This document shows, in pieces, positions 1 through 62,550 of a DNA stretch of 64,000 nt. Made by a program: the position numbers and the translations under genes. Source of the DNA: Fibrobacter sp. (GTDB lineage: Bacteria; Fibrobacterota; Fibrobacteria; Fibrobacterales; Fibrobacteraceae); contig JAZLKF010000008.1 of the NCBI GenBank assembly GCA_045597525.1, forward strand, positions 16,201-80,200, written 5' to 3'. Numbering within the stretch: position 1 is the stretch's first letter; each line of letters opens with the position of its first letter. The notes under the pieces are model-generated. The model was not told the origin of the DNA, ran no database searches, and saw only the letters and a program-made list of their open reading frames with translations.

Positions 1-2
1 AT

Positions 3-920
3 CTCGAGCATAACCTTTCTTGTTTGTCGGATCAATTAGTGGTTGTTTTTAAGAACCTCAAGAAATCAGGGCTGAATGATGTAAGGTCATTGATTAGTCG
101 CTACTATGGTGGTGTCTATTTTTCCTACAAACAAGCTGTTGATATTGATATTATTCTGGAGAATATTCACAGATTAGTTTCAGAAGAGAATCGTGATTTG
201 TTCCTTGCAGCTCTATTAAGTACTGCAAGTGATGTTGTTGATACAGTAGGAAAGCATTTTGCACAGCCAATTAAGGCAAGAGATTCCAAAGGTAAAATAA
301 AGATAACTGTTTACAACAAGGCTGTAAAAGACAAGACTATTGATGTTATTGTACTCTATCGCGAATGGTTGCTAAAGTATAAAAAACTGTCTAAGAGTAA
401 TTTTCAGCACATTACGATGCAGGGTGACTTCGAACAATGTTTAAGGACGCTTCCTGACAACGTGAGAACTGTCTATGCAGATCCTCCATACACTCGTGAC
501 CATTATAGTCGCTACTACCATGTTCTGGAAACGTTGACCCTTCGAGACACTCCAAAGATTTCGACAGTGACAATACATGGTTCAACTCATGTGAGCAATG
601 GCATCTATCGAGAAGACCGTCATCAATCGCCTTTCTGCATCAAGAGTAAAGCCCCTGAAGCATTCCGTAAGATGTTTGAACTCACGGCTTCGACAGGTAG
701 AAACCTGTTGTTTTCATATTCTCCATACGATGAAACTAAAAAAACTCATCCTCGTGTAGTGACTATGCAGCAACTTATTGCACTCGCAGAGGAATACTTT
801 GATAAAGTCGAGACTGTCTCTGCTGGTAGTTTCAAGCATAATAAGCTAAACTCAACAGAGCATTTCCTTGAAGCCTCCGATGAGGCGGAACTGTTGATAG
901 TATGCACTAATAACGAATAA
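3..920 (+). CDS. N6-adenine DNA methyltransferase (Dam/D12-like), 5' end cut by the window edge
   Basis: Frame is open from nt 3 with no upstream stop. Motif IV is VYADPPYTRDHYSRYY, with no FxGxG downstream, so the SAM motif should lie upstream of the window. AT-rich compared with core genes. Confidence 0.6.
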   Translation, partial: LEHNLSCLSDQLVVVFKNLKKSGLNDVRSLISRYYGGVYFSYKQAVDIDIILENIHRLVSEENRDLFLAALLSTASDVVDTVGKHFAQPIKARDSKGKIKITVYNKAVKDKTIDVIVLYREWLLKYKKLSKSNFQHITMQGDFEQCLRTLPDNVRTVYADPPYTRDHYSRYYHVLETLTLRDTPKISTVTIHGSTHVSNGIYREDRHQSPFCIKSKAPEAFRKMFELTASTGRNLLFSYSPYDETKKTHPRVVTMQQLIALAEEYFDKVETVSAGSFKHNKLNSTEHFLEASDEAELLIVCTNNE

Positions 921-933
921 TCCGTAAGATTCA

Positions 934-2622
934 ATGCAGTTAAAAGACAACATAAAATTCTCCATTGACACTCAGATGTCTGTAGGCGGTGAGGATTGCA
1001 AGAACATCCTGATAAAGGGTGACAATAAAACAATTCTACCAGAATTGGTATCTGTGTACGGAGGTAAAATAAAGTGCATTTACATAGACCCTCCTTACAA
1101 CAACGGAGATTCCTATCATTACTACAATGACAATACAACTACGTCTGCCTGGCTCAAAGACATGCGTAGTGTTTTGTCATGGCTTAAGATGCTGCTAAAA
1201 AAAGATGGTAGCATTTGGATTTCCATTGATGATAAGGAAATGGCTTATCTTAAAGTGGAGGCAGATAGAATTTTCGGACGCGAGAATTTTGCGAGCACTA
1301 TTGTTTGGCAACAAAGAAAGACACGTGAGAATCGTGCAGTATTCTCTTGCAATCACGAGTATGTGCTTGTTTATGCCAAAGACATAAAGGCTTTTAAGAA
1401 GTCACGCAATCTTCTTCCGGTTGGTGAAGATTTTGTTGATAGCAAATACAAGAATCCGGATAATGACCCACGAGGTCCTTGGCAGTCAGTATCAGCCAGC
1501 GTTCAAGCAGGTCATGCAGTAGCAAGTCAATTCTACACAATCACATCCCCTGCAGGTATAGAGTTCAGCCCGCCAAAGGGTCGTTGTTGGGCTTACAATC
1601 AAAAGCGTATGCTTCGTGAGATAGCACAAAACAACATTTGGTTTGGTTTAGAAGGAAGAAATGTCCCACGTATCAAAAAATTCCTAGCTAGCGCAAAAAT
1701 AGGTTTGACACCAGAAACCCTTTGGTCAGGCGACAACTATGGTTCCACAGATAGTGCTAAAAAGCATTTACTCTCTTTATTTCCTGAAATGGAAAATGTA
1801 TTCGACACTCCAAAACCAGAAGAATTGATAAAGCAAATTATTGAAATCGCAAGTAACAAAGGCGAATACGTACTTGATTGTTACATAGGTTCAGGTACAA
1901 CCATGGCAACTGCACATAAACTCAGCAGAAACTATATTGGAATTGAAATTGGTAAACAGATGGCTGATTTAGTTGTCAAGCGCATGAACCTCGTAATCAA
2001 CGGTGAACGCGGAGGGATTTCTACCATTATCAATTGGAATGGCGGTGGGGAATTCGCGTTCTTCAACTTTGACAAGAATAAAGTTGAAGAAAGGAAAATA
2101 AAAGTTGAACAGATATCTCACATGCAGCCAGTTGAATACCATCAACTTGACCTCTTCAATCTCTTTGAACAATACGGAGAAAAACCTTTGGTTGAGAACA
2201 ACATGGTTCGCGAAAACATTGGGATCAAATACAGCACGAAACATAATCGTCATAAATTGCCTATCGACCTCACAAAGAATCTCCTTATCTGCAACGTGAA
2301 GAAGGACAATTGGGAGCAGTATCTCAATGGCACTGCAAAAATTTACTACACAGGTAAAAAGTTCCCGACTACTGTAGCGCTCAACAAGCTCTACTACTTC
2401 ATGCCGTACCTCTCTGGCAAGGGCATCCGCGACCTCTATTACATCAAAGTAGCTCGTCTTGGCTACCGCAAGGAAGGTCAAGCGAATGGGGACAAGAATG
2501 ATCTCCGCTTAGTTTTCGAGATTGAACGAGTCGGACAACTCTTCGATGACTACAAGAAAATAGAACTTGAAATTTGGCACACATTTACAGATACTACAAT
2601 AAAAAAGATTACAAACATGTAA
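934..2622 (+). CDS. N6A/N4C DNA methyltransferase (beta-class motif order) with a C-terminal extension of about 180 aa of unknown function
   Basis: IYIDPPYNNG (motif IV) precedes VLDCYIGSGTTMATA (motif I). Starts 14 nt after the previous methylase. The C-terminal third (from about nt 2080) has no motif I recognise. Confidence 0.7.
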   Translation: MQLKDNIKFSIDTQMSVGGEDCKNILIKGDNKTILPELVSVYGGKIKCIYIDPPYNNGDSYHYYNDNTTTSAWLKDMRSVLSWLKMLLKKDGSIWISIDDKEMAYLKVEADRIFGRENFASTIVWQQRKTRENRAVFSCNHEYVLVYAKDIKAFKKSRNLLPVGEDFVDSKYKNPDNDPRGPWQSVSASVQAGHAVASQFYTITSPAGIEFSPPKGRCWAYNQKRMLREIAQNNIWFGLEGRNVPRIKKFLASAKIGLTPETLWSGDNYGSTDSAKKHLLSLFPEMENVFDTPKPEELIKQIIEIASNKGEYVLDCYIGSGTTMATAHKLSRNYIGIEIGKQMADLVVKRMNLVINGERGGISTIINWNGGGEFAFFNFDKNKVEERKIKVEQISHMQPVEYHQLDLFNLFEQYGEKPLVENNMVRENIGIKYSTKHNRHKLPIDLTKNLLICNVKKDNWEQYLNGTAKIYYTGKKFPTTVALNKLYYFMPYLSGKGIRDLYYIKVARLGYRKEGQANGDKNDLRLVFEIERVGQLFDDYKKIELEIWHTFTDTTIKKITNM

Positions 2623-2664
2623 TGACTGAAATCGACTCCCCAAAACTTCTGGAGGTGTACACTT

Positions 2665-2856
2665 ATGAATGGATTTAAAATGCCTGCGGTAATTTTAGCA
2701 GATTCCATGGAAGAGTACATGGCTACGCCTGATCCATACAAGAGCGCTCCCGAAAGCAAAGTGAACATTCTTGAACTGGGACGCTACATGAGACGAACTG
2801 GCAAGACAATTCACGACATGACAGCGGAAGAAATCCTCCAATTTAAGGTCGGCTAG
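2665..2856 (+). CDS. small hypothetical protein (63 aa)
   Basis: ORF only. Follows the methylase pair and precedes a terminator. No recognisable motif. Confidence 0.25.
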   Translation: MNGFKMPAVILADSMEEYMATPDPYKSAPESKVNILELGRYMRRTGKTIHDMTAEEILQFKVG

Positions 2857-2892
2857 TTTCGCGTTATTTTTCCAGCTATCAAAATAGAGATT

Positions 2893-2923
2893 AAAAAAGC
2901 CTCCCTCAAGGGGAGGCTTCTTT
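2893..2923. terminator. bidirectional rho-independent terminator
   Basis: aaaaaaGCCTCCCtcaagGGGAGGCttcttt hairpin flanked by an A-run and a T-run, between convergent genes. Confidence 0.7.
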
Positions 2924-2940
2924 AACGAACAATCGTAAAC

Positions 2941-3588
2941 TTAGCGAAGACCTTTCTTCTTGTAGTAGTACAGTTTCAGCTGGCCTATGGTCTGATCTTC
3001 TGTGGATTCCACCTTGATATCGGTTGCAAAGAACGGATAGATTTCATTGTCGCTATCCTTTGCAATGTACCAAGTTCCATCGGCTGCACCGAACATAGAG
3101 CTGCTAATTTCCGTATCTTCGTTGATTTCGAACATGCTCTTGCATACGGGAGTTTCTGCCGGCAGAGTGCCAGGTTCCAAACCGGTGCTTAAGTCGGCTT
3201 CGTAGACAGAAAGAAGCATGCTCCTTTCAAACATAACGGTATCGACATCAACGCGAAGCTCCAGGTGCTTGGGAATTTCGCCACCAGTCTTGAGGCTAAT
3301 TGACTGCTGCGTTTCAGAGTTGATATCATTGGTCAGGATTGCAGAATCCAGCACCATTTCAATGCAGCGTGAAGAGGAAGAATTTTCGACGGAAGAGGAC
3401 GACTTGGCAGAGGAAGAAGACCCCGGTTCGGTCGATTCGTCGGCATCATCTTTTTGGTCATCGTCCTTTTGGATGTCTTCGGAAGTTTCATCGCCATCGG
3501 CACCAGAAGAACTATCGTCACCACAGGCGATAAGACCGAAGCCTGCCGCAAAAATGGCGGACCCAAGGAGAATTTTTTTGAAGTTCAT
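2941..3588 (-). CDS. secreted lipoprotein, acidic Ser/Asp-rich linker, function unknown
   Basis: Start moved to the internal ATG at 3588 (MNFKKILLGSAIFAAGFGLIAC, a signal peptide plus lipobox) with aaggaa upstream. Confidence 0.6.
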   Translation of the reverse strand: MNFKKILLGSAIFAAGFGLIACGDDSSSGADGDETSEDIQKDDDQKDDADESTEPGSSSSAKSSSSVENSSSSRCIEMVLDSAILTNDINSETQQSISLKTGGEIPKHLELRVDVDTVMFERSMLLSVYEADLSTGLEPGTLPAETPVCKSMFEINEDTEISSSMFGAADGTWYIAKDSDNEIYPFFATDIKVESTEDQTIGQLKLYYYKKKGLR

Positions 3589-13124: not shown

Positions 13125-16100
13125 ATGTGGTGTAAAAAGCTTTTGAAGGGCGCAGCCCTTTTTGTTGCATTTGGATTTTCCGCAGCATTGGCTCAAAGCT
13201 ATTCTTTGAGCATTAACTATAGTGGAGATGAGCTGTACTACAAAGTCGGCAACGGAGCCTGTACAAAGGCGACCGGTGCCAACGGCAAATTCACAGCCAC
13301 CTTTACCAACGTTCAGCAGAATGCCAACATTTCGTTATTTAGCCAGCAGGGTTGTACTACAGGACAACTCCAATCAGCTAAGGTTACAAATGTTTTCAAA
13401 AATGGGGCCACTACCGCTACCATTGAACTAAAGGCCCCTCCCGCCGGTGGTCAGCAGCCTGGTGAACAACCTGGTGGCGCCCCCACCGTCTCGTCTTCCT
13501 CGTCTAAGCCCGTAGCCAGCAGCTCCTCCAGAAACAATGGCGGATGGGGCGGAGGCAATATTGGCGGCGGAGCAGCCAAACCCACAGGCAAGACTGTCAT
13601 CCGTTTCCTTACTCCCTGGACAAACACTTCCGCAGTCCTTTTCGTAGACGGTAACGAAACCGCAACCATGACCAAGGTCAAGAATTACTGCGGTTGGTTC
13701 GAAGCTTCTCTCAATCCGCCTACAACAGGTTTCAATGTCCACTTCAAACAGACAATCGGCTTGAACTATGTTGGCGCCGAAGGCATGGTCCAGAAGGAGC
13801 CCACCAGCGCCACAGAAATCAGCCTTGACTCCATTGCAGCCCTCACTGACACCATCTGGATTCAGGGCTACAAGAATGACGTTCCCGCAATCTTCGCCAA
13901 GTACCCAGGCGTTCTAGGCGAATGCCCCCTCAAGAAGTTCCCTGTAACAGTATTCGACTGGCTCCATGGAGACAAGGGTGACGGCGCTAACGGAAACGGC
14001 GCCTCTACCAACGGCGTAAGCGCAGACTTCGGTTCCGGCGGATGCTCTGCCAGCCCCATGAAGGGAATGGTGAAACCTCAGCTGGGTTCCAACGGCGTCC
14101 CTGTTCCCGCTGATCCCTTCCCCACAAACTGCAAGCTTACAGATCATCTCGCCAACTGGTTCCTGCCCGAAGTCATTGCCAAGAAGAACGGTGTTGAATA
14201 CACCAACATGACCTGCCGCGACCTCTATATTTCCATGGATAACGAAGGCTTCTGGCTTGCCGAAGTTTCCTCCAACAAAATTTCTGAAGGTAACGAAAAG
14301 AACAAGGGTGGAATGTTCCTTGTAGACGATTTTGAATATCTGGACGAAGCACAGACTATCAAGAACCCCTACTACGACCACTTGAATGGCAGCGGCGGAT
14401 ACCACAACTTCGGTTTCGCCGTGAAGATCCAGGCAACTTTTGAATACATTCCCGGTCAGTACTTTGACTTCTACGGTGACGACGACGTATGGGTATTTAT
14501 CGACAACCGCCTTGCGGTGGATATCGGCGGCCAGCACGGCCAGGTAGCGGGCGCAGTTGATCTAGATACTATGGGCTTGAAGGTAGGCGAAACCTACAAC
14601 TTCCATATCTTCTACGTAGAACGCCATGTAAGTTCCTCCAACTTCCGTATGCGCACCTCCATTGACTTGCAGGTAGATGCATCTATCTTCGTCACCTCCG
14701 ACAAGAAGGGAACTGCAACCAACTACGACATTTGGCAAATCAACAAAAAGAATAAACTCTCCTGCGGTTACGACCCCAACAACACCGAAGTGGATACTAC
14801 TGGCGGTGCCTCTACATTCCGTCTCACTGGCGGAAGCTTGGACGAACCGATGATCCTGAGCGTGGGCAAGCATTTTGAAGGCGGCATCATTATCACCAGC
14901 GATTCCACCTTCTCCATTGACTCCGCACTTATTGTAGATAACAAAGTGTTGGCCCCGGGTCACTACTTCTTGGAAATCGCGCTGAAATCCGATCCTAGCC
15001 AGACCACCATCATCGAAATCGTCATTCCATCTTACCCGTTGCCCAGCGTGGCTTTCGCAGACGAAAGCTGGAAAATTCTCGGCAAGGAAGTAACAGGCAA
15101 CAAGGCAACCATCGGTAGCTGGGCCTACGAAGTCTATCCGGTGAACATCACCTTCTTTAGAGAAAATGACAAGGACAAGATTGAGGTCAACAAGTATAAC
15201 CAGACAATCAACCTCAGCACTTCCAGCCCCCTCATCGACATTGTGGACAAGGATGGCAATGCCATTTCCAAGGTGAACATGACCATGGTCAATGGTGAAG
15301 CCCGCGCCACCTTCTACATCCGCGCCAATGGATACATTCCCAGCGCCACCATCATCGCCAAGGGCACGGCCGCAGCACCTTCCTACTGGAAGGAACTGGT
15401 CTTCGAAGAACCGCCGGTACCCCGTGTTGAAGTGGCCACCCTCTACGACAGAAACGGCGATGGACGAGGCGACAGACTTTACGTTAAGTTCAATAAGAGC
15501 CTGAAGGGCGACAGCAAACTTGACTCCCTGCAGCTCACTTTCGGCGAGACCTTCGCTGTAGTAAACAGCAAGAACATCAAGATTATCTCCGACACAGAAA
15601 TCGAGGTTGTCTCCGCCGCTAGCTGCGATTCAGGTTCCGTATGCGGTTTCGGCACCCGCCAGTTTACCGGCGGCGAATCCTCTATCTACACCGGCAATAT
15701 GTCCACCTGGTTCACTTATACCGAAAGTGGTAAGAATCACAACCTGAAGATCACCAACGAACCTGTAGACGACGGCATGGGCCCCATCATTGTCAAGGCA
15801 ACCAAGGAATCCATGAGAGACGGTAACCGCAAGCTGACAATAACCTTCAGTGAAGCGATTTCCGACGAAAGTCGACAGAACCTCTTCCAGACGATGTTCG
15901 AGTACATTTGCTATCGCTCTGGCGAACAAAAGCAACCCGAAGCCCCTGTACGTCAAGGTGGCAGCGGCAAGACCATCACCATGGTGTTCAGCCCTTCGAC
16001 CCTCGATGCAGTCTTCCCCACTGATGGAGACCAAGTCCGCTTTGTTCCCGGTGAGAACATGGCAGAAGATCTTTTGGGCAACGTACCTCACAAGTACAAT

Positions 16101-18766: not shown

Positions 18767-19124
18767 TAAAACTCCTAAAAGTCGACAAAAAGCATGTTAG
18801 ACACGATAATTGATTTGGCCCCAAGACCGATCCAAAAGTATGGACCCTGTCCGAGCCGCAAGCGCTTCTTGACGGAAAGTACCGCCCGCCCACAACCTGA
18901 GACCTGGGGACTATAAATATATAATATGATTTTTATACGGGGGAAGCCTCCCCCTCGCTCAAGCCCTTTTTAAGGTCTTTTGCTACCCCCTCTGCGGGGG
19001 CACGCCCCCGCAACGCCCCCAACCGTTGACAAATTGTACAACATATTTTTCAGCCAGCGCATCAAAAAAGTTTCGCCAAAATCTATATTCTTCCCGTAAG
19101 GAATTTGGGAAACCAGGAGGCTCT

Positions 19125-29756: not shown

Positions 29757-30221
29757 CTACTTCAAATATTCATCAGGAACGTTGTAGCCGTAGGAAGCCA
29801 ACTTCTTGGCGTAGGATTTGTCCTTCAAGCGTTCCCTGGATTCTTCCAGATGCTTGGCGTTGCTCTTGTCTTCGAAGCCGCACTTGACGCGAATGAATTG
29901 CACAAGGCAAAGGACGGCGGCAGCAGCGCAAGCCACCGCGGCAATAGAAATCTTGTTGAAAGTCAACTCGCCCACACGAGCCATTTGCAGGGCGAAGCAA
30001 ACCGCAGAAAATACCAGGAACAGCGGGATCGCCTTCACGTAAAATTTCGGATTTGTGGTCCGCGGATCAAAACCTTCAACGGCCACTTCACGGAATTTCT
30101 TTTCTACAAATTCTTCGCGGCAATCCTTGCAATTGACAATGGGGCTGCCATATGCGTAAGTGTTACAACTAAAACGATTCACCTTGCCGCAATGCGGGCA
30201 CTTGCTTTCAATATAACCCAT
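29757..30221 (-). CDS. zinc-ribbon membrane protein, unknown
   Basis: CPHCG...CKDC ribbon followed by two hydrophobic helices. Strong aaggag RBS. Confidence 0.5.
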   Translation of the reverse strand: MGYIESKCPHCGKVNRFSCNTYAYGSPIVNCKDCREEFVEKKFREVAVEGFDPRTTNPKFYVKAIPLFLVFSAVCFALQMARVGELTFNKISIAAVACAAAAVLCLVQFIRVKCGFEDKSNAKHLEESRERLKDKSYAKKLASYGYNVPDEYLK

Positions 30222-30310
30222 TTGACTCTCCTTTTAACCTGCGGTATAATATAAAAAGTTTGCCGTTAGGAGGGCCGACATAAAACTTGCTTTAAGTGGA
30301 CAAGCTAGCC

Positions 30311-30345
30311 GCATACAAAAAGCCCGCAGCGTTGAACTGCGGGCT
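30311..30345. repeat. left copy of an exact 35-bp direct repeat (hairpin terminator sequence)
   Basis: gcatacaaaaAGCCCGCAGcgttgaaCTGCGGGCT is identical to 35295-35329. Confidence 0.9.
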
Positions 30346-30396
30346 ATAGGGAAAATGTGAAAGATGAATTAAGTAACATCGGGTAATGGAAATATA

Positions 30397-31218
30397 TTAC
30401 CTGTTGCTAAATCCTAAATACGAACTAAAACCCAACATATACATAGCAAGAGTCAAATTGACGTCATCATCCCCTGCATTGTATTTTTTCGCTTGTGTTT
30501 GTAACTCACCAAAAACAGTATCTTTAGGTTCCGATAGCTTTGTTTTTTCAGCAACAACATTCTTTATGACTGCAGGTAACGCCATCATTACTTTGTAGAA
30601 TGCATCAGACTGGCCTGTCACTATGGAATAGAATTGATCCATACTAACTCGACGAATTTTGTTATGGGAATGTTTCTTTTTTTCAAACGACGTTTCCCAT
30701 TTTATATTTTGAGACGTACTTGCAATCGCTTCTACGAGAAAACAAGCACAATCATCATCATCCAAAAGCTGCTGTTGCATTTTTTTGTATGTTTTTTCAG
30801 CACTGGCACTATTCATCGTATTATGTTTATTTTTCATTTCAACATAAATCGTATGAACAAGTTCCTGCTTTTCTGACCCCACATAAACGCCATCAGAATT
30901 TTTATAAATAACATCCCATCCACCATCCTTCCCATTTGGTGGCACAACACACTTATTTATGTACTTAAAAATGTGCTGATGAAAATAACCAATGTAATTA
31001 TTATTCGTTTTGTCTCTTTGACGTGTTATTTCATTACTGATTAAATCTTGCCATGAAATATTAAATAATACTTTGTCAAACGCAAACTTGACAGGATCTA
31101 CAATATTTTTATTAAAGTCCTTTAACGACACGGATTTAAAAGAACCTATATAATTATTTATCGTTTCACGGACATGAGACGTGAAATCTCGTTCTGAAAT
31201 AAATTCAAGATTCCACAT
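30397..31218 (-). CDS. type II restriction endonuclease (PD-(D/E)XK), possibly Eco47II/Sau96I-like
   Basis: Starts 3 nt downstream of the C5-methylase stop, same strand. GGWDV...YVEMKNKHNTMNS fits D...ExK. The family guess is from memory only. Confidence 0.55.
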   Translation of the reverse strand: MWNLEFISERDFTSHVRETINNYIGSFKSVSLKDFNKNIVDPVKFAFDKVLFNISWQDLISNEITRQRDKTNNNYIGYFHQHIFKYINKCVVPPNGKDGGWDVIYKNSDGVYVGSEKQELVHTIYVEMKNKHNTMNSASAEKTYKKMQQQLLDDDDCACFLVEAIASTSQNIKWETSFEKKKHSHNKIRRVSMDQFYSIVTGQSDAFYKVMMALPAVIKNVVAEKTKLSEPKDTVFGELQTQAKKYNAGDDDVNLTLAMYMLGFSSYLGFSNR

Positions 31219-31220
31219 AG

Positions 31221-32258
31221 CTAAAGCTCCTTTAGCACTTTCAGTATCTGAAGGCCAATATCTTTTGCCAGATTTACAGGAACAGCATTACCAACTTGTT
31301 TATATTGCTCGGCCAAATTTCCTGAAAATTTCCATGAGTCAGGAAATGACTGAAAACGAGCATTTTCTCTTACACTGAATGGACGTACTTCCAAAGGATG
31401 ACATCTATCCGTCTGTTTCATTCCCGGATTAGTAAGAACAGTCAAGGACGGTTCATCTAAACCAATTCTTCGTAATATACCAGTCCTTCCGCCTTCCATA
31501 TCCCAACAAGTTTTCATATATGCTTTTGCAACTTTGGGATCAATATCTTTCCAGTAACCACCAGGAGGAACAAGGGCAAAAACTTTTTCCTTTGCTGCGG
31601 AATATCTTGCACAATGATTCTTATCCGGATCTACATCCAGTACAACATCTCTCAGTACAGGCTTATACTTGTGAGGTTTCGGAAAATCATATTTAATTTC
31701 GCCTGCAAGATCTTTTCTAATTCCAACTGTTATTAAACGTTCTCTTTTTTGAGGATTACCATAGTCCCACGCATTCAAAACCTGGTGAAACGTCACATAT
31801 CCCTCATCTTCAAAAATGTTTAGAATTGTCTGATATGTTTTGCCTTTATCATGAGACAAAAGTCCTTTCACATTTTCAAAGAGAAACATCTTCGGTTGTA
31901 GTTTGCGAAGAAATGTGGCATAATGATAAAACATGGTTCCACGAACATCTTCAAGACCTAAACGCTTGCCAGCATAGCTAAAACTTTGACAAGGAGCTCC
32001 TCCCGATAAAAGGTCTAAATCATTCTTTTTTACATTGAATTCGTCTTCAAGATTTCGCCCCGCAACCAAGGCAACATCTTCACATAAGACTTTCCATTTT
32101 GGACGATTTGTTCTTAAAGTCTCTGCAGCAGCTTTATTAAATTCAACTAAACCAATATGTTCAAATCCCGCTTTTTCTAAGCCTATCGCTAAACCACCAG
32201 CACCGGCAAAAAGTTCAATGGATTTAAAAACTTTCTTTTGTTTTTTCGTCTCCGCCAT
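31221..32258 (-). CDS. dcm: DNA (cytosine-5)-methyltransferase
   Basis: FAGAGG (I), GGAPCQSFS (IV), ENV (VI), QKRER (VIII), RPFSVRENARFQSFPD (IX), GNAVPV (X). Confidence 0.9.
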   Translation of the reverse strand: MAETKKQKKVFKSIELFAGAGGLAIGLEKAGFEHIGLVEFNKAAAETLRTNRPKWKVLCEDVALVAGRNLEDEFNVKKNDLDLLSGGAPCQSFSYAGKRLGLEDVRGTMFYHYATFLRKLQPKMFLFENVKGLLSHDKGKTYQTILNIFEDEGYVTFHQVLNAWDYGNPQKRERLITVGIRKDLAGEIKYDFPKPHKYKPVLRDVVLDVDPDKNHCARYSAAKEKVFALVPPGGYWKDIDPKVAKAYMKTCWDMEGGRTGILRRIGLDEPSLTVLTNPGMKQTDRCHPLEVRPFSVRENARFQSFPDSWKFSGNLAEQYKQVGNAVPVNLAKDIGLQILKVLKEL

Positions 32259-55001: not shown

Positions 55002-55385
55002 TTACTCCAGCGAGCAGGAATTTACTTTTTTCTCTGAAGCCTGCGGGCTTGAATGAGAGCATTCCCATTTACTAATACTTGCGGCGCAACGTTCAACATT
55101 ACCACAATTTTGCACACAGGCGCCCATAAGATGATATTCAATAAGGATATCAAATCTTTCGCAGCTATTGTCACTCGCTGCCTTATAAATAACGCCACCC
55201 ACTATAATACCTGCAGTAACAGCTTCTTCGGGATGGTCTGCTATAACTTGAGCGCCTTTTTTCGCAAGACTAGAAACCCTTGACCAAAGGCTAGCCTTTG
55301 GAGGTTCTTCCTCCAAGCTATCTTGCTGCGCAAAAATATTAGATACAAATACCAGCAACGTAATTATCAATAAAATCTTTTTCAT
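55002..55385 (-). CDS. small secreted/anchored Cys-rich protein, paralogous to the C-terminus of 55835-56374
   Basis: Signal peptide MKKILLIITLLVFVSNIFA. ggagg RBS. Gly/Val-rich segment AGIIVGGVI, then C..F.ILIEYHLMGAC..C....CA..IS...C. Confidence 0.5.
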   Translation of the reverse strand: MKKILLIITLLVFVSNIFAQQDSLEEEPPKASLWSRVSSLAKKGAQVIADHPEEAVTAGIIVGGVIYKAASDNSCERFDILIEYHLMGACVQNCGNVERCAASISKWECSHSSPQASEKKVNSCSLE

Positions 55386-55834: not shown

Positions 55835-56374
55835 TTATCTAAAATCAATTGGGCAACTTTCCACATCAGAGCCAACAAACTTCGGATGCTTACACAAATA
55901 CTCGCTGATTTTTTTCGCGCAGCTTTTTACTCCATAGCCGTTATACTTGCAACAATCCATCAGGTAATATTCAGATTCAAGACTATATGTAGCGCAGTGA
56001 GTTGTTAAAGGGGTATCGACCAAGTCTCCAACCACAACTCCAGCAGCAAGACCAGAAGCCACAAGAATAACGCCTTTCTTTGAAGGTTTCTTCGGCAAAT
56101 TTGAAGCTTTAGCAGCATCTCTAGCTTTTGATGCGGCTTTTTGAGTAGTTTCCTTCAGTTTTTCAACAATCTGGGCATCCTCAAGGAATTCCTTAGTTCT
56201 TTTTTTCGACACTTCTGCAAAGGACTGACCCGCTTGTTTTGCCTTTGACCCAACATCAATGGCTTTTTCACGACCTTCCTTGGCCAATTCACTCGCCTTT
56301 GAGGCGGCTTTTTTAGCAGAATCCTTCAAATTTTCAAAAAATTGGCGTTTTTCCATAATTCTTTTTTGACCCAT
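55835..56374 (-). CDS. helical Lys/Ala-rich protein with one TM segment and a Cys-rich C-terminal domain
   Basis: Likely ATG at 56374 or 56356 (the track start is a TTG). GVILVASGLAAGVVVG, then C.TYSLESEYYLMDCC......C.KKISEYLC. Confidence 0.45.
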   Translation of the reverse strand: MGQKRIMEKRQFFENLKDSAKKAASKASELAKEGREKAIDVGSKAKQAGQSFAEVSKKRTKEFLEDAQIVEKLKETTQKAASKARDAAKASNLPKKPSKKGVILVASGLAAGVVVGDLVDTPLTTHCATYSLESEYYLMDCCKYNGYGVKSCAKKISEYLCKHPKFVGSDVESCPIDFR

Positions 56375-56460
56375 TTTGACCCATTCTGTTGTTCTATGAT
56401 TGTAAACATCAAGGGAATCAACCACCAAATATTAACAAATAAAACAAAAGAGAGGTTCAC

Positions 56461-56694
56461 ATGCTTCACATTTCCACCAACAAGCGTATCAACGAGTACG
56501 TCAACAACATCTTGAAATCTGGTGATTGGGAAATTCGACATTCCAAACATTTTGTACTCAAGCACAAAACCGGCGTGGTCTTTGTAGTTCCGCCTACGCC
56601 TCGCCGCAACAACAACTGCTTTGACATTTTCATGGAGCAATACCGTCGCGCCCTCCGCAAGATTTTTGAAATCCAAGGGGTATTACAAAGATAA
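56461..56694 (+). CDS. small basic protein with HicA/YcfA-like features
   Basis: gagagg RBS. GDWEIRHSKHFVLKHKTGVVFVVPPTP resembles the G.....GSH..f.h..g....vp.H core. Weak. Confidence 0.3.
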   Translation: MLHISTNKRINEYVNNILKSGDWEIRHSKHFVLKHKTGVVFVVPPTPRRNNNCFDIFMEQYRRALRKIFEIQGVLQR

Positions 56695-56740: not shown

Positions 56741-58630
56741 ATGGAATACACAAAAGAAAATATCGAAGAATTAATCACGATGCTTCTTGAGGACCTTCTC
56801 AAATCGCATAAAAAAGATAAGATCAATCCTTCACCCATCCTCAAAAATCTTGAAAGCAAGGGTGTATCAAAAAATGATCTTCTAAATTACTTTGGCGTCG
56901 ATCGATTGATTGATGTTCTTTCACAAATGAACAACATCCAACTTACCCTTGACAAACACGGCACCACCTACGCAAGCTTTAAGACAACCTCTTCTGAACC
57001 TATCCAGGACGTTGATACAAGTTCAACTGAAAATACAAAAGAGAAAGCCACTCCCATGAGCATGCATAATCGAATTAGAATCATCCTGAGCGCTCTCAAT
57101 AAGGGACTCTATGGAAAAGAAGAAGCTATCCGCCTTGCACTGCTTTCTGCAGTGGCTGGAGAAAGTATTTTCTTCCTTGGTCCTCCGGGTACCGCCAAGA
57201 GTATGATTAGCCGTCGTATTCACCAAGCGTTTGTTAAAGAATCAAAGTACTTTGAATATCTGATGAACGAATTTTCCACCCCCGATGAAATTTTCGGAAC
57301 CATTAAATTGAAAGGTCTTGATGATGGCATTTACGAAAAGAACACTGTTGGCTACCTTCCTCAATCCAACATCGCCTTTCTTGATGAAATTTGGAAGAGT
57401 GGTCCGGCAATTCTCAATACTCTGTTGACGATCATCAATGAAAAGAAATTCCATAACGGCAACAAGGTGGAAACAGTTCCTTTGCAGGCACTGATTTCCG
57501 CTTCTAATGAACTTCCAAAAGAAAAAGCCGGTCTAGAAGCTTTGTATGATCGATTCATTATACGAACCATTGTGGATTACGTTAACGATGAAGAGGATTT
57601 TAAGAGCCTATGCGAAGGTGATTCCGAAGAAATCGTCATTGACGAAAAGATTCTGTTGAACAATGCAGAAATTGCAGATTGGCAAAAAGACATTAAGGCA
57701 ATTAAAATCAACGATACCATTTGGGACGTAATTCTTAATGTCAAAAAGGAACTCATCCGTAAAAACCAGGAACAAAACCGTGATCCCAAGGAAAAGTTCC
57801 AAGTATCCGACCGTCGTTGGAAAAAAATCATTCACCTTCTGAAGACATCTGCATTCCTCAGCGGTCGCGAAGAAGTTGATTTAATGGATTGTCAGTTGCT
57901 CACTTACTGTCTCTGGGGAACAAAGAAACAGCTAGATGAAATCAAGGGAATTGTTGAAGAAGTCGTGCAACAGCATGGAATCGAATGTACTACAGCCATT
58001 GACGACATTGAAGAACAACTTAAAAACTTCAAATCAGTTATTACTGCCACCTGGTATAAGATGAGTGACAAGAAAACTCATCAGGAAATCATATCAAAGA
58101 AAGAATCTGACAACCGTATTTACTACAAATTACAGAGTAATCAATATGGGTACGAATGGATTTCTAAAAACACCATTGATAATGACTATTACGGTCGAAA
58201 CTATAAACGTCATTATTATATAGACATGCATGGTAACAAAATTAATATCGACTATGTAGAAATCAACGAAAATAATTTCACCATGAATGTAAATCACTAC
58301 CAAAGCTACAGCATTCCTCTTGAAACAAAAATCATCGTCGATGATAAGGGCGGCCTCGTCAAGAATCCAGAACTATTTAACAATGCCCACGTATATGAAG
58401 CTACGATGGAAAAATTTGACAAGGAAGCCTATCTTCCTTTGATGAAGAACATTGAAACAGAAATCAGCGACCTTTCTGCTTTCAAAGAATCGGTAACCCA
58501 AAAATGCGAAAGCAACATCTTTGCTCAGGAATCTTTTAAGAACATCATCATGACCAAGATTGACAAATCCATGAAAGCATTGGAAGACTGTAAGGTCAAA
58601 CTGGAAAAGCTCCATAAACTTTATGCTTAA
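56741..58630 (+). CDS. ravA: RavA-like MoxR-family AAA+ ATPase with an extra N-terminal region of about 105 aa and a divergent C-terminal half
   Basis: GLYGKEEAIRLALLSAVAGESIFFLGPPGTAKSMISRRI, FEYLMNEFSTPDEIFG, GYLPQSNIAFLDEIWKSGPAILNTLLTIINEKKFHNG, ISASNELP and VSDRRWKKIIHLLKTSAFLSGR run closely parallel to E. coli RavA as I remember it. Confidence 0.75.
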   Translation: MEYTKENIEELITMLLEDLLKSHKKDKINPSPILKNLESKGVSKNDLLNYFGVDRLIDVLSQMNNIQLTLDKHGTTYASFKTTSSEPIQDVDTSSTENTKEKATPMSMHNRIRIILSALNKGLYGKEEAIRLALLSAVAGESIFFLGPPGTAKSMISRRIHQAFVKESKYFEYLMNEFSTPDEIFGTIKLKGLDDGIYEKNTVGYLPQSNIAFLDEIWKSGPAILNTLLTIINEKKFHNGNKVETVPLQALISASNELPKEKAGLEALYDRFIIRTIVDYVNDEEDFKSLCEGDSEEIVIDEKILLNNAEIADWQKDIKAIKINDTIWDVILNVKKELIRKNQEQNRDPKEKFQVSDRRWKKIIHLLKTSAFLSGREEVDLMDCQLLTYCLWGTKKQLDEIKGIVEEVVQQHGIECTTAIDDIEEQLKNFKSVITATWYKMSDKKTHQEIISKKESDNRIYYKLQSNQYGYEWISKNTIDNDYYGRNYKRHYYIDMHGNKINIDYVEINENNFTMNVNHYQSYSIPLETKIIVDDKGGLVKNPELFNNAHVYEATMEKFDKEAYLPLMKNIETEISDLSAFKESVTQKCESNIFAQESFKNIIMTKIDKSMKALEDCKVKLEKLHKLYA

Positions 58631-60623
58631 GCAGGTTACCCCTATGATAAAGAAAATTTCAGATCGATCTCGAGAATTTTCTAATACCGCATTGGGAATT
58701 CTTGAAAAAATCAAAGCCAAATATCCCAAATGCCCCTCCTATGAAAAATTGACGGAAGAAGAAAGAGCTCTACTTTTACGCCAAATTAATCAGGCCGGGA
58801 ACGCCGTTGCAGCCACCCATTACAAGGGTTTCAGTTTCTACGAAGATCTAGTAAAGGAATCTCGCAACATAGACGCACATTCAACCAAAGATGATCCACA
58901 AACCATCAATGGTATTTTTAGCCGTCTGTACAAATTTATAGACGTTGCCAAAACAGAACTTCGCCAAAATATTGGCAAGATGTTTTCCTCGAACAAGAGT
59001 GTTCGTCGCTTTGAAAAATTTGGAAAAGCTTTTTCTAGTGAAGAAAAGCGCAAACAGTTTTCCGATGGAATCCAGAGTACTTTCAACGAAGGTGATTTTA
59101 AACCGAATTTTGAAAATGCCAAAGAAAATGCCCTTGCGAAGGCAACGCAATCTGTTTTAACACCCGCAAATAAAGACCAGAAGGAACTTCTTGACTTCGC
59201 AAAGAATGAGGGAAGCCTGTTTGAATCTATTCAAAAGGAAATAATTGAATGGACAGAAAAAACCAACAAGATTCTTGAAGAACAAAACCCTTTTATTAAG
59301 GAATCTCAATTTGTTGGTAAGTTGAAGGTTTCCCCTGCTGACAACCTCCAGGAAAACATTGAAAGCCTTCAAAGCGAATATAACAGCATTGATTCCGTAA
59401 AAAAGTTCAAATCCAACGCAAACTTTGAATTTTTCACAGAAAAATTCAAGGAAAACCAAAGCACTAAGAAAAAGCCCAAACCAAAGGATATGATTTCCAA
59501 GGACAACGAAATCCTAGCTCGCAATCTTATCAAAGATTTACAGCAAGAATTAGATCGCAGAAAGACGGCCTGGGAACTTGATCAGATAGAAAAACAGCGA
59601 CAGGAACTTCTCAAGAAATTGTACGAAAAAATTGAAAATTTCAAGAAGTTGATGGAAACTTTAAAATCCTTTACTAAGGATTACGGCCGCCTTTGGGATC
59701 TCGCTCAGGGAGAGTTACAAGACAATGGATTTGACATTCTTGAAAAGTATGGTGATCTTTTGCAAAACGACGAAGGTCTAAAGGAACTTGCCGAGATGAT
59801 CGGCAGACATAGAGACGAAGAACAAAAATTTCATAAAGAACTTCGTGAAAAAATTGTTGTCGAAACTGTGTATAATCCTGAACCGGCATTTAAGGGTGAA
59901 ATCGCAGGACTTACAATTTCAGATAACTTACCAGATACACTGCCTAGCGAATTAGGTCTTTATAGTAATCCTAAAACAAAGCAGATTTTCAAGATGAAAT
60001 TTGCACAGAAACAACTTCTATCGTACGCATACACTAGAAATGTCAAGTACCAAAAATCCCACAGCGAAACTGAAGAAGTTGAAGTCGGAGAAATCGTAGA
60101 ACATAAAGGTCCTATGCTTGTATGCGTAGATACGTCCGGTAGTATGAACGGCACTCCCGAAAGAGTTGCAAAAACCATCTGCTTCGCTCTCGCAAAAAAA
60201 TCCCTCGAGGAACAGCGGGGTTGTTACTTGATTTCATTTTCCACTGGAATAGAAACCATGGACTTAAGTACCTTCAATTCTACTCAGGGACTTACTAATC
60301 TGGTAAAATTTCTGCGAATGAGTTTTCATGGAGGAACCGATGCCACGCCAGCATTAAATGAATCTCTACGTCAAATAGAAAAAAAAGATTGGAAAAATGC
60401 AGATGTGCTCATGATCAGCGACTTTCAAATGAGTGACCTAGGAGAGGATTTGACAAAACGCATAAATGCCGCCAAAGAGAATAAAAGTCGATTTTTCTCT
60501 TTGGCAGTGACAAACGGTGGAAGCAATCAGGTCATTTCCTGTTTCAACAATAATTGGATTTACGATACACGCTCTAGTGATTCTACATCAAAGCTTATTC
60601 GTCAATTACATGAAATGCAATAA
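58623..60623 (+). CDS. viaA: ViaA-like vWA protein with a novel helical N-terminal module of about 330 aa carrying an RNxxxH signature
   Basis: C-terminal half: GRLWDL, KQLLSY, MLVCVDTSGSM (MIDAS DxSxS), CYLISFST, FHGGTD, VLMISDF. Start ATGCTTAA overlaps the ravA-like stop by 8 nt. R81-N-I-D-A-H86 lies at nt 58863-58880. Confidence 0.7.
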   Translation: MLKQVTPMIKKISDRSREFSNTALGILEKIKAKYPKCPSYEKLTEEERALLLRQINQAGNAVAATHYKGFSFYEDLVKESRNIDAHSTKDDPQTINGIFSRLYKFIDVAKTELRQNIGKMFSSNKSVRRFEKFGKAFSSEEKRKQFSDGIQSTFNEGDFKPNFENAKENALAKATQSVLTPANKDQKELLDFAKNEGSLFESIQKEIIEWTEKTNKILEEQNPFIKESQFVGKLKVSPADNLQENIESLQSEYNSIDSVKKFKSNANFEFFTEKFKENQSTKKKPKPKDMISKDNEILARNLIKDLQQELDRRKTAWELDQIEKQRQELLKKLYEKIENFKKLMETLKSFTKDYGRLWDLAQGELQDNGFDILEKYGDLLQNDEGLKELAEMIGRHRDEEQKFHKELREKIVVETVYNPEPAFKGEIAGLTISDNLPDTLPSELGLYSNPKTKQIFKMKFAQKQLLSYAYTRNVKYQKSHSETEEVEVGEIVEHKGPMLVCVDTSGSMNGTPERVAKTICFALAKKSLEEQRGCYLISFSTGIETMDLSTFNSTQGLTNLVKFLRMSFHGGTDATPALNESLRQIEKKDWKNADVLMISDFQMSDLGEDLTKRINAAKENKSRFFSLAVTNGGSNQVISCFNNNWIYDTRSSDSTSKLIRQLHEMQ

Positions 60624-60649: not shown

Positions 60650-60799
60650 ATGTCCAAGCAGACCAACCTCAATAATCACGCAAACCAGCTGAACGCAAAC
60701 AAGGGCACAAGCGGTTTTAACAAGGCTTATACCGCCGCCATGAATAACCACGCCAACCAACAGAATCCCAACAACAAACTTTACAAGGGAGGCAAGTAG
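60650..60799 (+). CDS. unannotated 49-aa Asn/Gln-rich micro-protein
   Basis: Below the 60-aa track cutoff. Strong aaggag RBS 7 nt upstream. MSKQTNLNNHANQLNANKGTSGFNKAYTAAMNNHANQQNPNNKLYKGGK has a duplicated NNHANQ motif. Confidence 0.5.
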   Translation: MSKQTNLNNHANQLNANKGTSGFNKAYTAAMNNHANQQNPNNKLYKGGK

Positions 60800-60936: not shown

Positions 60937-62550
60937 ATGTATAAAATCACATGTTCAAAAAAAATTGGATTATATGTCAAGTTTTTACCAGGATATATTC
61001 GTATGTTAAAGGGTATGGATTTAACTTTTGTTTCTCATTTTACGGCACGGCCGGTACCTGCAATTAACTTTAAGCAGTATCTTTCCGCATGGAAGGACGG
61101 TGTAAAAAGTATGTCCGAGGTAGACATCATTGAAGCCTCACGCAGATACATGGCCTCCGATGGAGAATACAGCGATTACACCGTTGAAGGTGTTTGTTAC
61201 GATAACGATTCTGATTATAAGGCGCTAGGGTTTTACGGAACCCTGCTCTTAGCCAACAATCAAGTTGTGAAAACCCACATGGTGATGCATTTAGGCAAGG
61301 AGGAATTCCAAGGCGAAATTTATGTTACCTTCATGAATTTTCCGCTAGATAAGCCCTTTGAAAGAAGATTTTTTTCTCTATGGACTATTTTGAACAAAAA
61401 CATGTTCAAGGAATGCACACCCTTTCAATGGGCACCGACGTCCGTACCAAATATTTCATTGGAAAAATCCCAACTGGAATGGATCCTGAAGGTAATTACC
61501 AGACAAAGCAAACATTCCTACGTAAATACTTTGGCTGCGCGGTGGAAATTCGCTTCGGCAGGAGACTCCTCGGCGGAATCTACAAAAGAATCCACTATTG
61601 AAACCACGACCTCATCAGAACCCATCGCAATAGAAACCGCGGCAGATGTTCCAGAAGTCGTGCCTGCAGCTGTTGAAAATGCCTCGGTAGGCGCAACAAA
61701 CGCTCCCGCAGCAGATACTATCATCCCTGCAGACCAAATCGCAAAACTCCAGGAACAGCTAGACGAATATAAAAGCGAAAATGAAAAACTGTCCGAAATC
61801 AACGAACAACTGGCTTCTGCATATCGTGAACTGAAGAAAGACAAGAAATCGCTGGTTCAAAATATCGAAGATCAAAAGAAACGCCTCAAGGTTCTCAAGA
61901 AGCGTGTAGAAAGTGCAGAGGCTCGCGCCAAGGAATCCATCAATGGCGATGTCAAAGAGTTCTGCGATTACTTCGATAAGGAACAAGAAAGGCTCGAAAA
62001 CGAATGCACGGAGAAAGACCGACTCATCGAAAAACTGCAGCAGGATCTTGATACTGCCAACGGCAAGATCACATCCCTCAAAGGTCGACTCAATAAGCAG
62101 AGTTCCGACAAAGGCATCAGCGGCCTGCTTGCCGCTCCCGAATTTGAAACCGAAAAATACGAAGACGAATTTGGAATCGCAATTTTCAGCGCTCTGCACA
62201 AGGCTATCGAAAAGACTCCCACAAAGAACAATTCACCGCACACGAGATGCATTGATGTATGGCAGGCAATCATTGACGCAAACCCCGACCTGGAAAAAGC
62301 ATTCGGGCAATTCTGCGACAATAAGGACGCCTTAAAGAATGCCATTGTTAGCGGTGAGCTGGATAAGAAAAAGCACCTTCTGAATCCGTTCAATCTAACC
62401 TACGGAAAGCACACCAACTGTCACGGGAAAATCACCTTCGGCAGCGATGAGCGATATATAGCAAGTACCGCCTCGACAGCCAGTGAAACTGCCGCAGGGT
62501 TCAGCAACTGCGCCAAAGATTTAAGAAATACATTTCTCTATCCCACATAA
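60937..62550 (+). CDS. unknown 537-aa protein: globular N-terminal domain, acidic/Thr-Ala-rich linker, long coiled coil, C-terminal domain
   Basis: ORF and composition only. Start uncertain (alternatives at 61003 and 61015; no clear RBS). Confidence 0.5.
   Translation: MYKITCSKKIGLYVKFLPGYIRMLKGMDLTFVSHFTARPVPAINFKQYLSAWKDGVKSMSEVDIIEASRRYMASDGEYSDYTVEGVCYDNDSDYKALGFYGTLLLANNQVVKTHMVMHLGKEEFQGEIYVTFMNFPLDKPFERRFFSLWTILNKNMFKECTPFQWAPTSVPNISLEKSQLEWILKVITRQSKHSYVNTLAARWKFASAGDSSAESTKESTIETTTSSEPIAIETAADVPEVVPAAVENASVGATNAPAADTIIPADQIAKLQEQLDEYKSENEKLSEINEQLASAYRELKKDKKSLVQNIEDQKKRLKVLKKRVESAEARAKESINGDVKEFCDYFDKEQERLENECTEKDRLIEKLQQDLDTANGKITSLKGRLNKQSSDKGISGLLAAPEFETEKYEDEFGIAIFSALHKAIEKTPTKNNSPHTRCIDVWQAIIDANPDLEKAFGQFCDNKDALKNAIVSGELDKKKHLLNPFNLTYGKHTNCHGKITFGSDERYIASTASTASETAAGFSNCAKDLRNTFLYPT

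Follow-up and report, generated by a model that had tools for sequence, protein, structure and literature searches.

A RavA/ViaA-family gene pair with a HEPN-like domain in an accessory region of a Fibrobacter genome

A divergent RavA/ViaA-type gene pair

The window analysed here, a 64,000-nucleotide (nt) stretch of a Fibrobacter sp. contig (JAZLKF010000008.1, positions 16,201 to 80,200 of the forward strand; assembly GCA_045597525.1), carries two tightly spaced genes, the first encoding a RavA-like MoxR AAA+ ATPase and the second a ViaA-like vWA protein with a HEPN-like domain at its N terminus (Table 1). An initial annotation made from the sequence alone had picked out this pair as a candidate conflict or defence system with three non-canonical extra modules, and we recovered both of its open reading frames (ORFs), as well as the ATPase and vWA motifs that it listed, at the coordinates in Table 1.

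The ATPase has the MoxR AAA+ core with Walker A and Walker B motifs and the AAA_lid_8 domain that mark RavA family members, and its catalytic residues are invariant in 20 homologs. It matched bpMoxR (2e-53), AAA_5 and AAA_lid_8 in Pfam, the solved structure of E. coli RavA (PDB 3nbx, E=2e-79, residues 104-412), E. coli RavA by hhalign (4e-73) and the NCBIfam RavA model (NF010054, 1e-102), bearing out the initial impression that the core is very close to RavA. RavA in the curated sense is defined by at least 681 bits and full-length coverage; the ATPase scored 344.7 bits, below that equivalog cutoff, and aligned only to positions 3-318 of the 498 in the model, with the ATPase side of the alignment ending at residue 425. 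About 104 residues precede the RavA-like part in the NCBIfam and PDB alignments, in agreement with the ~105 first estimated, and comprise an N-terminal domain followed by a disordered linker. The AlphaFold2 model of the N-terminal domain (predicted local distance difference test score, pLDDT, ~75-90) contains helices at residues 5-23, 31-39, 44-51 and 56-61 and strands at 66-70 and 76-80, and looks like a winged helix, a putative fold class. No family match to this domain was found; it is kept in homologs of 617-640 amino acids (aa) and missing from forms of ~530 aa.

The C-terminal half of the ATPase had been described as impossible to align to RavA and as an extra module, and the first of these statements stands at the level of sequence: when the ATPase family was aligned to E. 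coli RavA with hhalign, nothing matched past RavA residue 288, and the region gave no sequence match to LARA_dom (PF20265) or ATPase_RavA_C (PF12592), which E. coli RavA itself matches at 1e-39 and 2e-23, respectively. The second appears not to stand, as the AlphaFold2 model (pLDDT ~85-95) places a helix at 420-438, a beta-rich domain at 439-541 and long helices at 549-591 and 597-628, and Foldseek aligned the ATPase model to the 481-residue RavA chain over 564 alignment columns (E=4e-18). Judged by this model, the region appears to be a divergent counterpart of the RavA triple-helix bundle with its inserted LARA domain and not an added module; because sequence alignment is absent past RavA residue 288, the equivalence is one of predicted topology only. 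Homologs from Spirochaetota, and some from Bacteroidota, conserve the region.

The partner protein combines a helical N-terminal region with a C-terminal vWA domain bearing a metal ion-dependent adhesion site (MIDAS), which is the composition of ViaA, and by analogy it is predicted to bind its RavA-like ATPase. The MIDAS was correctly called intact in the initial annotation: D503, S505, S507 and D600 are invariant across 25 homologs and T572 is nearly so. By hhalign, residues 321-653 aligned with residues 147-475 of E. coli ViaA (E=3e-43), and the NCBIfam ViaA model (NF008230, 2e-77) covered residues 189-661 with model positions 32-484 of 487. Curated ViaA proteins reach at least 500 bits and have no additional domains, and the window protein scored 261.5 bits, below this cutoff. 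E. coli ViaA has a helical N-terminal domain of 319 residues, which binds RavA in a nucleotide-dependent manner, and is dimeric (PMC9489729). Given this domain length and an NCBIfam alignment that begins at residue 189, the true N-terminal extension relative to ViaA is ~185 residues, and most of the ~330 extra residues originally reported belong to ViaA's own N-terminal domain. Two of the three proposed extra modules, the ATPase C-terminal half and most of the vWA N-terminal region, therefore appear to be ordinary parts of RavA and ViaA, an outcome that the initial annotation had named as speaking against its reading and that holds here in part. The third, the ATPase N-terminal extension, is real, and the HEPN-like part of the vWA protein is likewise additional. 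Since both proteins score at about half of their equivalog cutoffs, they are best classed, from their sequences, as members of the RavA/ViaA family and not as orthologs in the curated sense.

The two ORFs overlap by 8 nt (ATGCTTAA) if the vWA gene is read from its first ATG, and it was this overlap that had been taken to imply translational coupling. The overlapping sequence is present, although vWA homologs and the gene call of a 95%-identical strain start at the equivalent of the second ATG (M8, 58644), which would leave a 13-nt gap to the ATPase gene and no overlap. The true vWA start codon thus appears ambiguous, and coupling is predicted to be tight with either ATG. As a 7-nt overlap is likewise found between ravA and viaA of E. 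coli, tight coupling is nothing unusual in the RavA/ViaA family. A strong Shine-Dalgarno sequence (AAGGAG) lies 5' of the ATPase gene.

A HEPN-like domain at the N terminus of the vWA protein

HEPN domains carry the signature Rx4-6H, with a polar residue, typically N, after the R, and as published their fold is a four-helix up-down bundle that has this motif at the end of helix 3, a stretch inserted between helices 2 and 3, and an acidic position within helix 2 (PMC3710099). We aligned 25 full-length proteins that are 39-96% identical to the window vWA protein and found a conserved N-terminal block, R-N-x-x-A-H-[ST], with R81 and A85 invariant and at least 90% conservation of N82 and H86 (17-25 homologs). 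Elsewhere the domain is 22-57% identical while R-N-x-x-A-H is near-invariant, and the motif has the expected spacing and the polar residue after R. The AlphaFold2 model of vWA residues 1-200 (pLDDT 83; predicted template modelling score, pTM, 0.78) contains helices at 14-33, 45-63, 73-86 and 92-119, with the Rx4H motif (residues 81-86) at the end of helix 3 of a predicted four-helix bundle and an insert separating helices 2 and 3. A Pfam scan of 10 divergent members of the family produced HEPN-clan families in 11 of the 26 matches listed, all of them spanning the motif region and with best E-values of 5e-5 to 3e-4; HEPN-clan families presumably account for well under 1% of Pfam models, an estimate and not a count. 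Sub-threshold Pfam matches of family members include AbiU2, Swt1, DUF4145, MAE_28990, RiboL-PSP, Apea, Cthe2314 and HEPN_Toprim_N. This HEPN-like domain with its conserved Rx4H, missed in the initial annotation, is the one feature that gives the conflict hypothesis substance, and its sequence suggests a metal-independent ribonuclease (RNase).

Several results weigh against the HEPN assignment. There was no significant match to a HEPN profile or solved structure: no HEPN Pfam model reached its gathering score when family members were scanned individually, in PDB and BFVD, Foldseek with the N-terminal model retrieved no HEPN structure (best E ~1), and PDB searches with the N-terminal domain, as a profile and as single sequences, returned nothing relevant. 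Models of 200 residues with small all-alpha bundles are a hard case for Foldseek; this negative nonetheless stands and lowers our confidence in the assignment. With a profile of the HEPN-like region, we searched 1.84 billion representative proteins and obtained only 38, each a member of the same family, a fragment of such a member or one of two leucine-rich repeat (LRR) fusions; the search gave no bridge to the named HEPN families. At the helix-2 position expected to be acidic (position 60), 14 of the 25 homologs have E and the window's clade has N, and the R or H of the motif is lost in a few members (P0225, P0266 and P0273). Weighing these results together, we consider it fairly probable that vWA residues ~9-124 form a HEPN domain.

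The domain is also found apart from ViaA. Two metagenomic proteins of 537-544 aa (P0260 and P0264; …RKLRNHFAHITE…) join it to C-terminal LRR-type repeats with no ViaA part, and in nine of the loci compared, many of them from Treponema, a stand-alone paralog of 92-108 aa lies between the ATPase and vWA genes and aligns with the domain at an hhalign probability of 98.6%. The occurrence of the domain in LRR fusions and in stand-alone ORFs marks it as an independent module. The Rx4H of the stand-alone ORFs is often degenerate (HNRLxH, GKRLSY, AERISH), and the paralog may act as a regulatory partner. In seven of these nine loci the ATPase is longer as well, at ~690-800 aa, and some carry PF07603.

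Table 1. Coordinates of the gene pair, its domains and motifs, and other features in the window and in related loci. Coordinates preceded by a locus number refer to that locus.
Feature	Coordinates	Strand	Extent	Basis or remark
RavA-like MoxR AAA+ ATPase gene	56741..58630	+	629 aa	ORF list, Pfam, NCBIfam, PDB matches
ATPase N-terminal domain	56741..56980	+	residues 1-80	AlphaFold2 helices and beta hairpin
Disordered linker of ATPase	56981-57052	+	residues 81-104	AlphaFold2 model
AAA+ core and lid	57053..57955	+	residues 105-405	Pfam, PDB match, hhalign
Walker A, GPPGTAKS	57179-57202
Walker B, FLDEIW	57377-57394
VSDRRWKK	57803-57826
ATPase C-terminal region	57998..58624	+	residues 420-628	AlphaFold2, Foldseek
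Gene for HEPN-like domain and ViaA-like vWA protein	58623..60623	+	666 aa from first ATG; 659 aa from ATG 58644
HEPN-like four-helix domain	58647..58994	+	residues 9-124	alignment, AlphaFold2, weak Pfam matches
R81-N-I-D-A-H86 motif	58863-58880	+		homolog alignment
ViaA-N-terminal-like helical region	59187..60092	+	residues 189-490	NCBIfam ViaA model, hhalign
vWA domain, MIDAS intact	60102..60605	+		Pfam VWA_CoxE, VWA_2
MIDAS motif DTSGS	60129-60143
MIDAS motif GGTD	60330-60341
MIDAS motif ISDF	60414-60425
HicA-like small ORF, directly upstream of ATPase	56461..56694	+	77 aa	PADLOC HicA-like model, 6e-8
Stand-alone HEPN-like ORFs	L006 9340-9639; L008 11454-11732; L009 12105-12398			also in L011, L012, L013, L014, L016, L017
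Upstream genes of four-gene cluster	L081 8352-9925; L083 8313-9907; L091 942-2528
Cys-rich protein	55002-55385	-	127 aa
Cys-rich protein	55835-56428	-	197 aa
Asn/Gln-rich ORF	60650-60799	+	49 aa	just 3' of vWA gene
Coiled-coil protein	60937-62550	+	537 aa
Fibrobacter-1 small RNA	18819-18919	-		Rfam RF02983, 101.8 bits

Distribution and genomic setting

Nucleotide synteny with three other Fibrobacter genomes covers the window from 44.2 to 54.9 kb at 80-94% identity and ends at position 54,897, the start of chrA. The chrA-SDF side of this break is common to the three related genomes, and the genes beyond it differ in each (AAA_14 ATPase, SbcCD and DnaJ-domain proteins among them), making the site a variable hot spot. 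Whereas chrA has a dense run of Fibrobacter homologs at 75-94% identity, the ATPase and vWA protein have a sister-strain copy at 95-96% and then nothing above 54-65%, their next relatives being Treponema proteins. The block from 54.9 to 64 kb, rightly described at the outset as AT-rich, has a GC content of 0.40 compared to 0.49 for the rest of the window; the pair itself, at 0.38, lies 10 points lower than the remainder of the window, and in seven other loci its GC content lies 1-12 points under that of the flanks (at least 4 points in five of them). The synteny break, the drop in identity from 95% to ~60-65% and the low GC content together indicate that the pair is almost certainly an accessory, horizontally acquired RavA/ViaA-family module. 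A syntenic housekeeping locus conserved across Fibrobacter, which the initial annotation had named as the finding that would speak against it, is not what we observed, given the different genes in the three relatives. No ldcI, frd or nuo genes were present within ~9 kb of the pair in the window ORFs and Pfam matches, as first noted. We saw no tRNA, integrase or flanking repeat delimiting an integrative element, with no dedicated repeat search made.

In a survey of 95 fetched loci we compared long and short forms of the vWA partner. All partners with a ~180-residue extension carry R-N-x-x-[ASG]-H at position 69-93 (long-form partners of 26 loci); they come from Treponema, a second Fibrobacter, a Leptospiraceae metagenome-assembled genome (MAG) and two Bacteroidota MAGs. 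It is missing from all canonical ViaA-like partners, those of 450-570 aa (Vibrio, enterics, Bacteroides, Saprospiraceae). At 10-11 of 24 loci compared, a TM1812/CARF-like gene and a sigma-like gene precede the pair to give a four-gene cluster. The CARF-like gene product (~205 aa) matches the TM1812/TIGR02221 Cas family at 5e-10 to 6e-12, a family to which NCBI also assigns it in T. saccharophilum, and the sigma-like product (~310 aa) has weak sigma-70 similarity; both genes were looked for in the window and are absent. L083-L085 have the four-gene version with a WD40-type beta-propeller gene upstream of it. Toxin-antitoxin or Abi genes neighbour the pair in several loci, namely HicAB in L087 and L081, RelB-YoeB, ToxN and a CI-like repressor in L094, and Abi_2 in L083. 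Partial vWA ORFs were seen as well: in L014 an ORF at 15100-15594 consists of the C-terminal vWA part alone, ~1 kb downstream of the full-length copy, and in L010 an extra vWA C-terminal ORF lies at 13938-14255, with the vWA gene seemingly split into parts of 88, 441 and 105 aa. These ORFs suggest that some Treponema genomes have duplicated the module or are losing it.

The small ORF directly upstream of the ATPase gene matches the PADLOC HicA-like model but not Pfam HicA_toxin, and no HicB homolog was found in the window, whereas a HicAB system pairs HicA with an adjacent HicB. In the sister strain the gene is also called, with a nearly identical sequence, and a homolog with 43% identity sits directly upstream of a divergent pair in Fibrobacter sp. 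RGIG10017 (L008). This ORF may be a toxin-like gene that was transferred along with the pair, or else a third component. When the pair and eight neighbours were scanned with PADLOC, PHROGs, Pfam and NCBIfam, this ORF gave the only defence-system match.

Proposed mechanism and alternative explanations

In how it works the pair comes closest to enterobacterial RavA-ViaA (E. coli b3746/b3745; PDB 3nbx and 6q7l), from which it also descends. It shares with RavA a MoxR core that is ~49% identical over ~290 residues, AAA_lid_8 and, by predicted topology, a beta domain inserted in a C-terminal helical bundle at the LARA position, shares with ViaA a helical N-terminal region and a C-terminal vWA domain with MIDAS, and resembles the E. 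coli genes in being adjacent and overlapping or nearly so. Unlike RavA, the window ATPase has its ~104 further N-terminal residues and a LARA-position domain and C-terminal helices that are unrecognisable by sequence; unlike ViaA, its partner bears a HEPN-like domain of ~125 residues and a linker of ~60; and, unlike RavA-ViaA, the pair scores at about half the NCBIfam equivalog cutoffs and is accessory and low in GC, with no ldcI, frd or nuo gene nearby. These features suggest that the ViaA-like partner of a divergent RavA/ViaA-family pair gained an N-terminal HEPN-like domain. Domain composition, residue conservation, accessory status and two-gene coupling were computed here, and because the ATPase, MIDAS and Rx4H residues are all conserved, the pair appears to have three active parts under selection.

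HEPN RNases work as dimers with a composite active site. A ViaA dimer that binds RavA and HEPN dimers that share a composite site lead us to propose that the ATPase controls HEPN pairing, and we tentatively favour the reading that the pair is an ATP-regulated HEPN RNase conflict module, while rating it somewhat short of probable. In the mechanism that we infer, which extends to RNase activity, its regulation by the ATPase, the trigger and the biological role, the ViaA-like dimer would use its helical N-terminal region to bind the ATPase hexamer, in the manner of E. coli ViaA with RavA. The ATPase would then, through its nucleotide state, govern the pairing or exposure of two HEPN domains and so the formation of a composite Rx4H active site. 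A trigger, perhaps an invader protein or a stress signal, could be sensed by the MIDAS site, the LARA-position beta domain or the ATPase N-terminal domain; sensing would turn the RNase on, and RNA cleavage would lead to growth arrest, comparable to abortive infection or a toxin-like response. A bolder claim, that this RavA/ViaA branch is a true RNA-targeting immune or abortive-infection system in which a MoxR ATPase gates a HEPN RNase on a ViaA-like adaptor, with the Treponema module wired to a CARF-like sensor and a sigma-like protein, is one that we hold possible but doubtful.

Other points, besides those raised against the HEPN assignment, speak against a conflict module. E. coli RavA-ViaA acts on respiratory complexes and membranes, not on RNA. 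The accessory location emphasised in the initial annotation holds, as a strain-variable patch of low GC content, but the defence role drawn from it found no counterpart in PADLOC (PADLOC-DB v2), which matched neither the ATPase nor the vWA protein. Two of the related loci (L088 and L089) are flanked by housekeeping genes only, phage records yielded no full-length copy (best coverage 47%), and the plasmid records yielded a single one, on a 382-kb replicon of Treponema saccharophilum.

A first alternative is a lineage-specific, chaperone-like RavA/ViaA system doing work comparable to that of the enterobacterial pair, one that remodels or targets membrane or respiratory complexes and whose N-terminal bundle is a non-catalytic interaction or nucleotide-binding domain with a motif that binds and does not cleave. 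The pair has kept the AAA+ core with its lid, the predicted domain at the LARA position, the N-terminal region of ViaA and the vWA/MIDAS part; it matches no PADLOC defence model and sits amid housekeeping genes at some loci, its HEPN assignment is sub-threshold and found no support from Foldseek, and non-catalytic HEPN domains exist (PMC3710099). What this explanation accommodates poorly is the patchy distribution of the pair, its absence from the same locus in close Fibrobacter relatives, a GC content consistently below that of the flanks, the conservation of R, N and H at catalytic HEPN positions, the toxin-antitoxin, Abi and CARF-like neighbours at other loci, the lack of ldcI, frd or nuo nearby and scores well under the NCBIfam equivalog cutoffs for both proteins. 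We consider it a serious explanation but an unlikely one.

The small HicA-like ORF raises another alternative, an addiction or toxin-antitoxin-like cassette in which this ORF, the HEPN-vWA protein or both are toxins neutralised by the ATPase or its N-terminal domain, so that the cassette stabilises a variable island and senses no invaders. Such a cassette would explain the position of the ORF directly upstream without HicB, the homolog adjoining the divergent pair in the second Fibrobacter and the toxin-antitoxin modules that adjoin the pair in three Treponema loci, and the small HEPN-like paralogs of related loci, with their often degenerate motif, could be its inhibitory partners. However, the HicA-like gene is absent from most Treponema loci and owes its assignment to a single PADLOC model without Pfam support, a 629-aa AAA+ ATPase with intact catalytic residues would be an unusual antitoxin, and the vWA/MIDAS domain would be left without a role; we judge this alternative improbable.

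The pair also recalls the ternary conflict systems of Kaur, Burroughs, Iyer and Aravind (2020; PMC7159879), which are likewise accessory and patchy and follow the same logic of a MoxR ATPase, a vWA protein and a predicted effector. Membership of these MoxR-vWA-VMAP or beta-propeller systems would fit the Pfam bpMoxR match (2e-53) and the WD40-type gene upstream of the four-gene version in L083-L085, but is very improbable, as the window pair is a two-gene member of the RavA/ViaA clade with no VMAP, iSTAND or beta-propeller gene in the window, no such third component recurs across 24 related loci, its effector-like HEPN domain is fused to the vWA protein itself, and Kaur et al. list RavA-ViaA as housekeeping and mention HEPN in the reference list only (PMC7159879). 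The bpMoxR match was rejected as proof of membership, since E. coli RavA matches this model more strongly (1.5e-56), and the match marks only the RavA-like core.

Returning to the ATP-regulated HEPN RNase, the pair resembles HEPN effectors such as Csm6/Csx1, Abi2/AbiF, AbiU2, RnlA and HEPN-MNT (PMC3710099) in its predicted four-helix bundle with R-N-x-x-x-H ending helix 3, and the Treponema clusters, with a TM1812/CARF-like gene in the same cluster, recall the combination of CARF and HEPN in Csx1. Unlike these effectors, the domain matches no family model at threshold and no structure by Foldseek, and control by a MoxR AAA+ protein is hypothetical. Modules of vWA, MoxR and VMAP have been linked to CARF near type III CRISPR loci (PMC10910872), and by analogy offer a loose precedent for the Treponema version. 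Term searches did not find the HEPN-ViaA-RavA architecture in Kaur et al. (PMC7159879) or any mention of vWA, MoxR, ViaA or AAA+ in the 2013 HEPN survey (PMC3710099), and full-text literature searches that paired ViaA with HEPN, or RavA/ViaA with phage defence, found no description of a HEPN-ViaA fusion.

RavA and ViaA are widespread and structurally well studied, and their cellular role has been debated for two decades (LdcI cage, Frd/Nuo maturation, membrane binding, aminoglycoside sensitisation). A ViaA fused to a predicted RNase offers a concrete, mutable hypothesis for what a MoxR/vWA pair regulates, and the HEPN-ViaA branch behaves as mobile accessory cargo beside toxin-antitoxin, Abi and CARF-like genes. 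If the RNA-targeting reading is true, the branch would represent a defence architecture that neither PADLOC-DB v2 nor the literature searched contains, and would hint that the toxicity of canonical RavA-ViaA (aminoglycoside sensitisation, persistence) descends from a conflict function. Confirmation would extend the defence repertoire of rumen and gut Spirochaetota and Fibrobacterota by a compact, ATP-dependent HEPN system of two genes, and would supply a tractable model for vWA/MIDAS adaptors that couple AAA+ motors to effectors. If the domain is instead non-catalytic, the pair would be a divergent, horizontally transferred RavA/ViaA pair of modest interest.

Other features of the window

Just 3' of the vWA gene lies a 49-aa Asn/Gln-rich ORF (MSKQTNLNNHANQLNANKGT...NNKLYKGGK). 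Its gene is the sole sequence beyond chrA that is common to the other Fibrobacter genomes (~77-78% nt identity), and the protein is conserved in L096 and L098; as the ORF sits just past the pair on the 3' side, it may be the right-hand boundary of the block that carries the pair. On the other side of the pair, the 127-aa and 197-aa proteins share an alike Cys-rich C-terminal motif (…Y.LM..C…C……C…IS…C.H). The C terminus of the 127-aa protein is ~50% identical to those of 128/129-aa proteins at the equivalent site in L096 and L098, and the family looks fast-evolving.

The 537-aa coiled-coil protein is 75% identical to its sister-strain counterpart, compared to 95% nt identity for the pair, and nt alignment is lost over its N-terminal half (60.9-61.7 kb), indicating strong strain variation. 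No homolog was found adjoining the pair in other loci, and we set aside its JetC, LmuB and SMC matches as non-specific coiled-coil noise. A Fibrobacter-1 small RNA (Table 1) and the Fibrobacter homologs of the genes that flank the pair place the window in a Fibrobacter genome. Two further stretches of the window, 1-3000 and 30000-32000, have a GC content of 0.38-0.41, compared to ~0.49 for the window outside 54.9-64 kb, and may be additional accessory regions.

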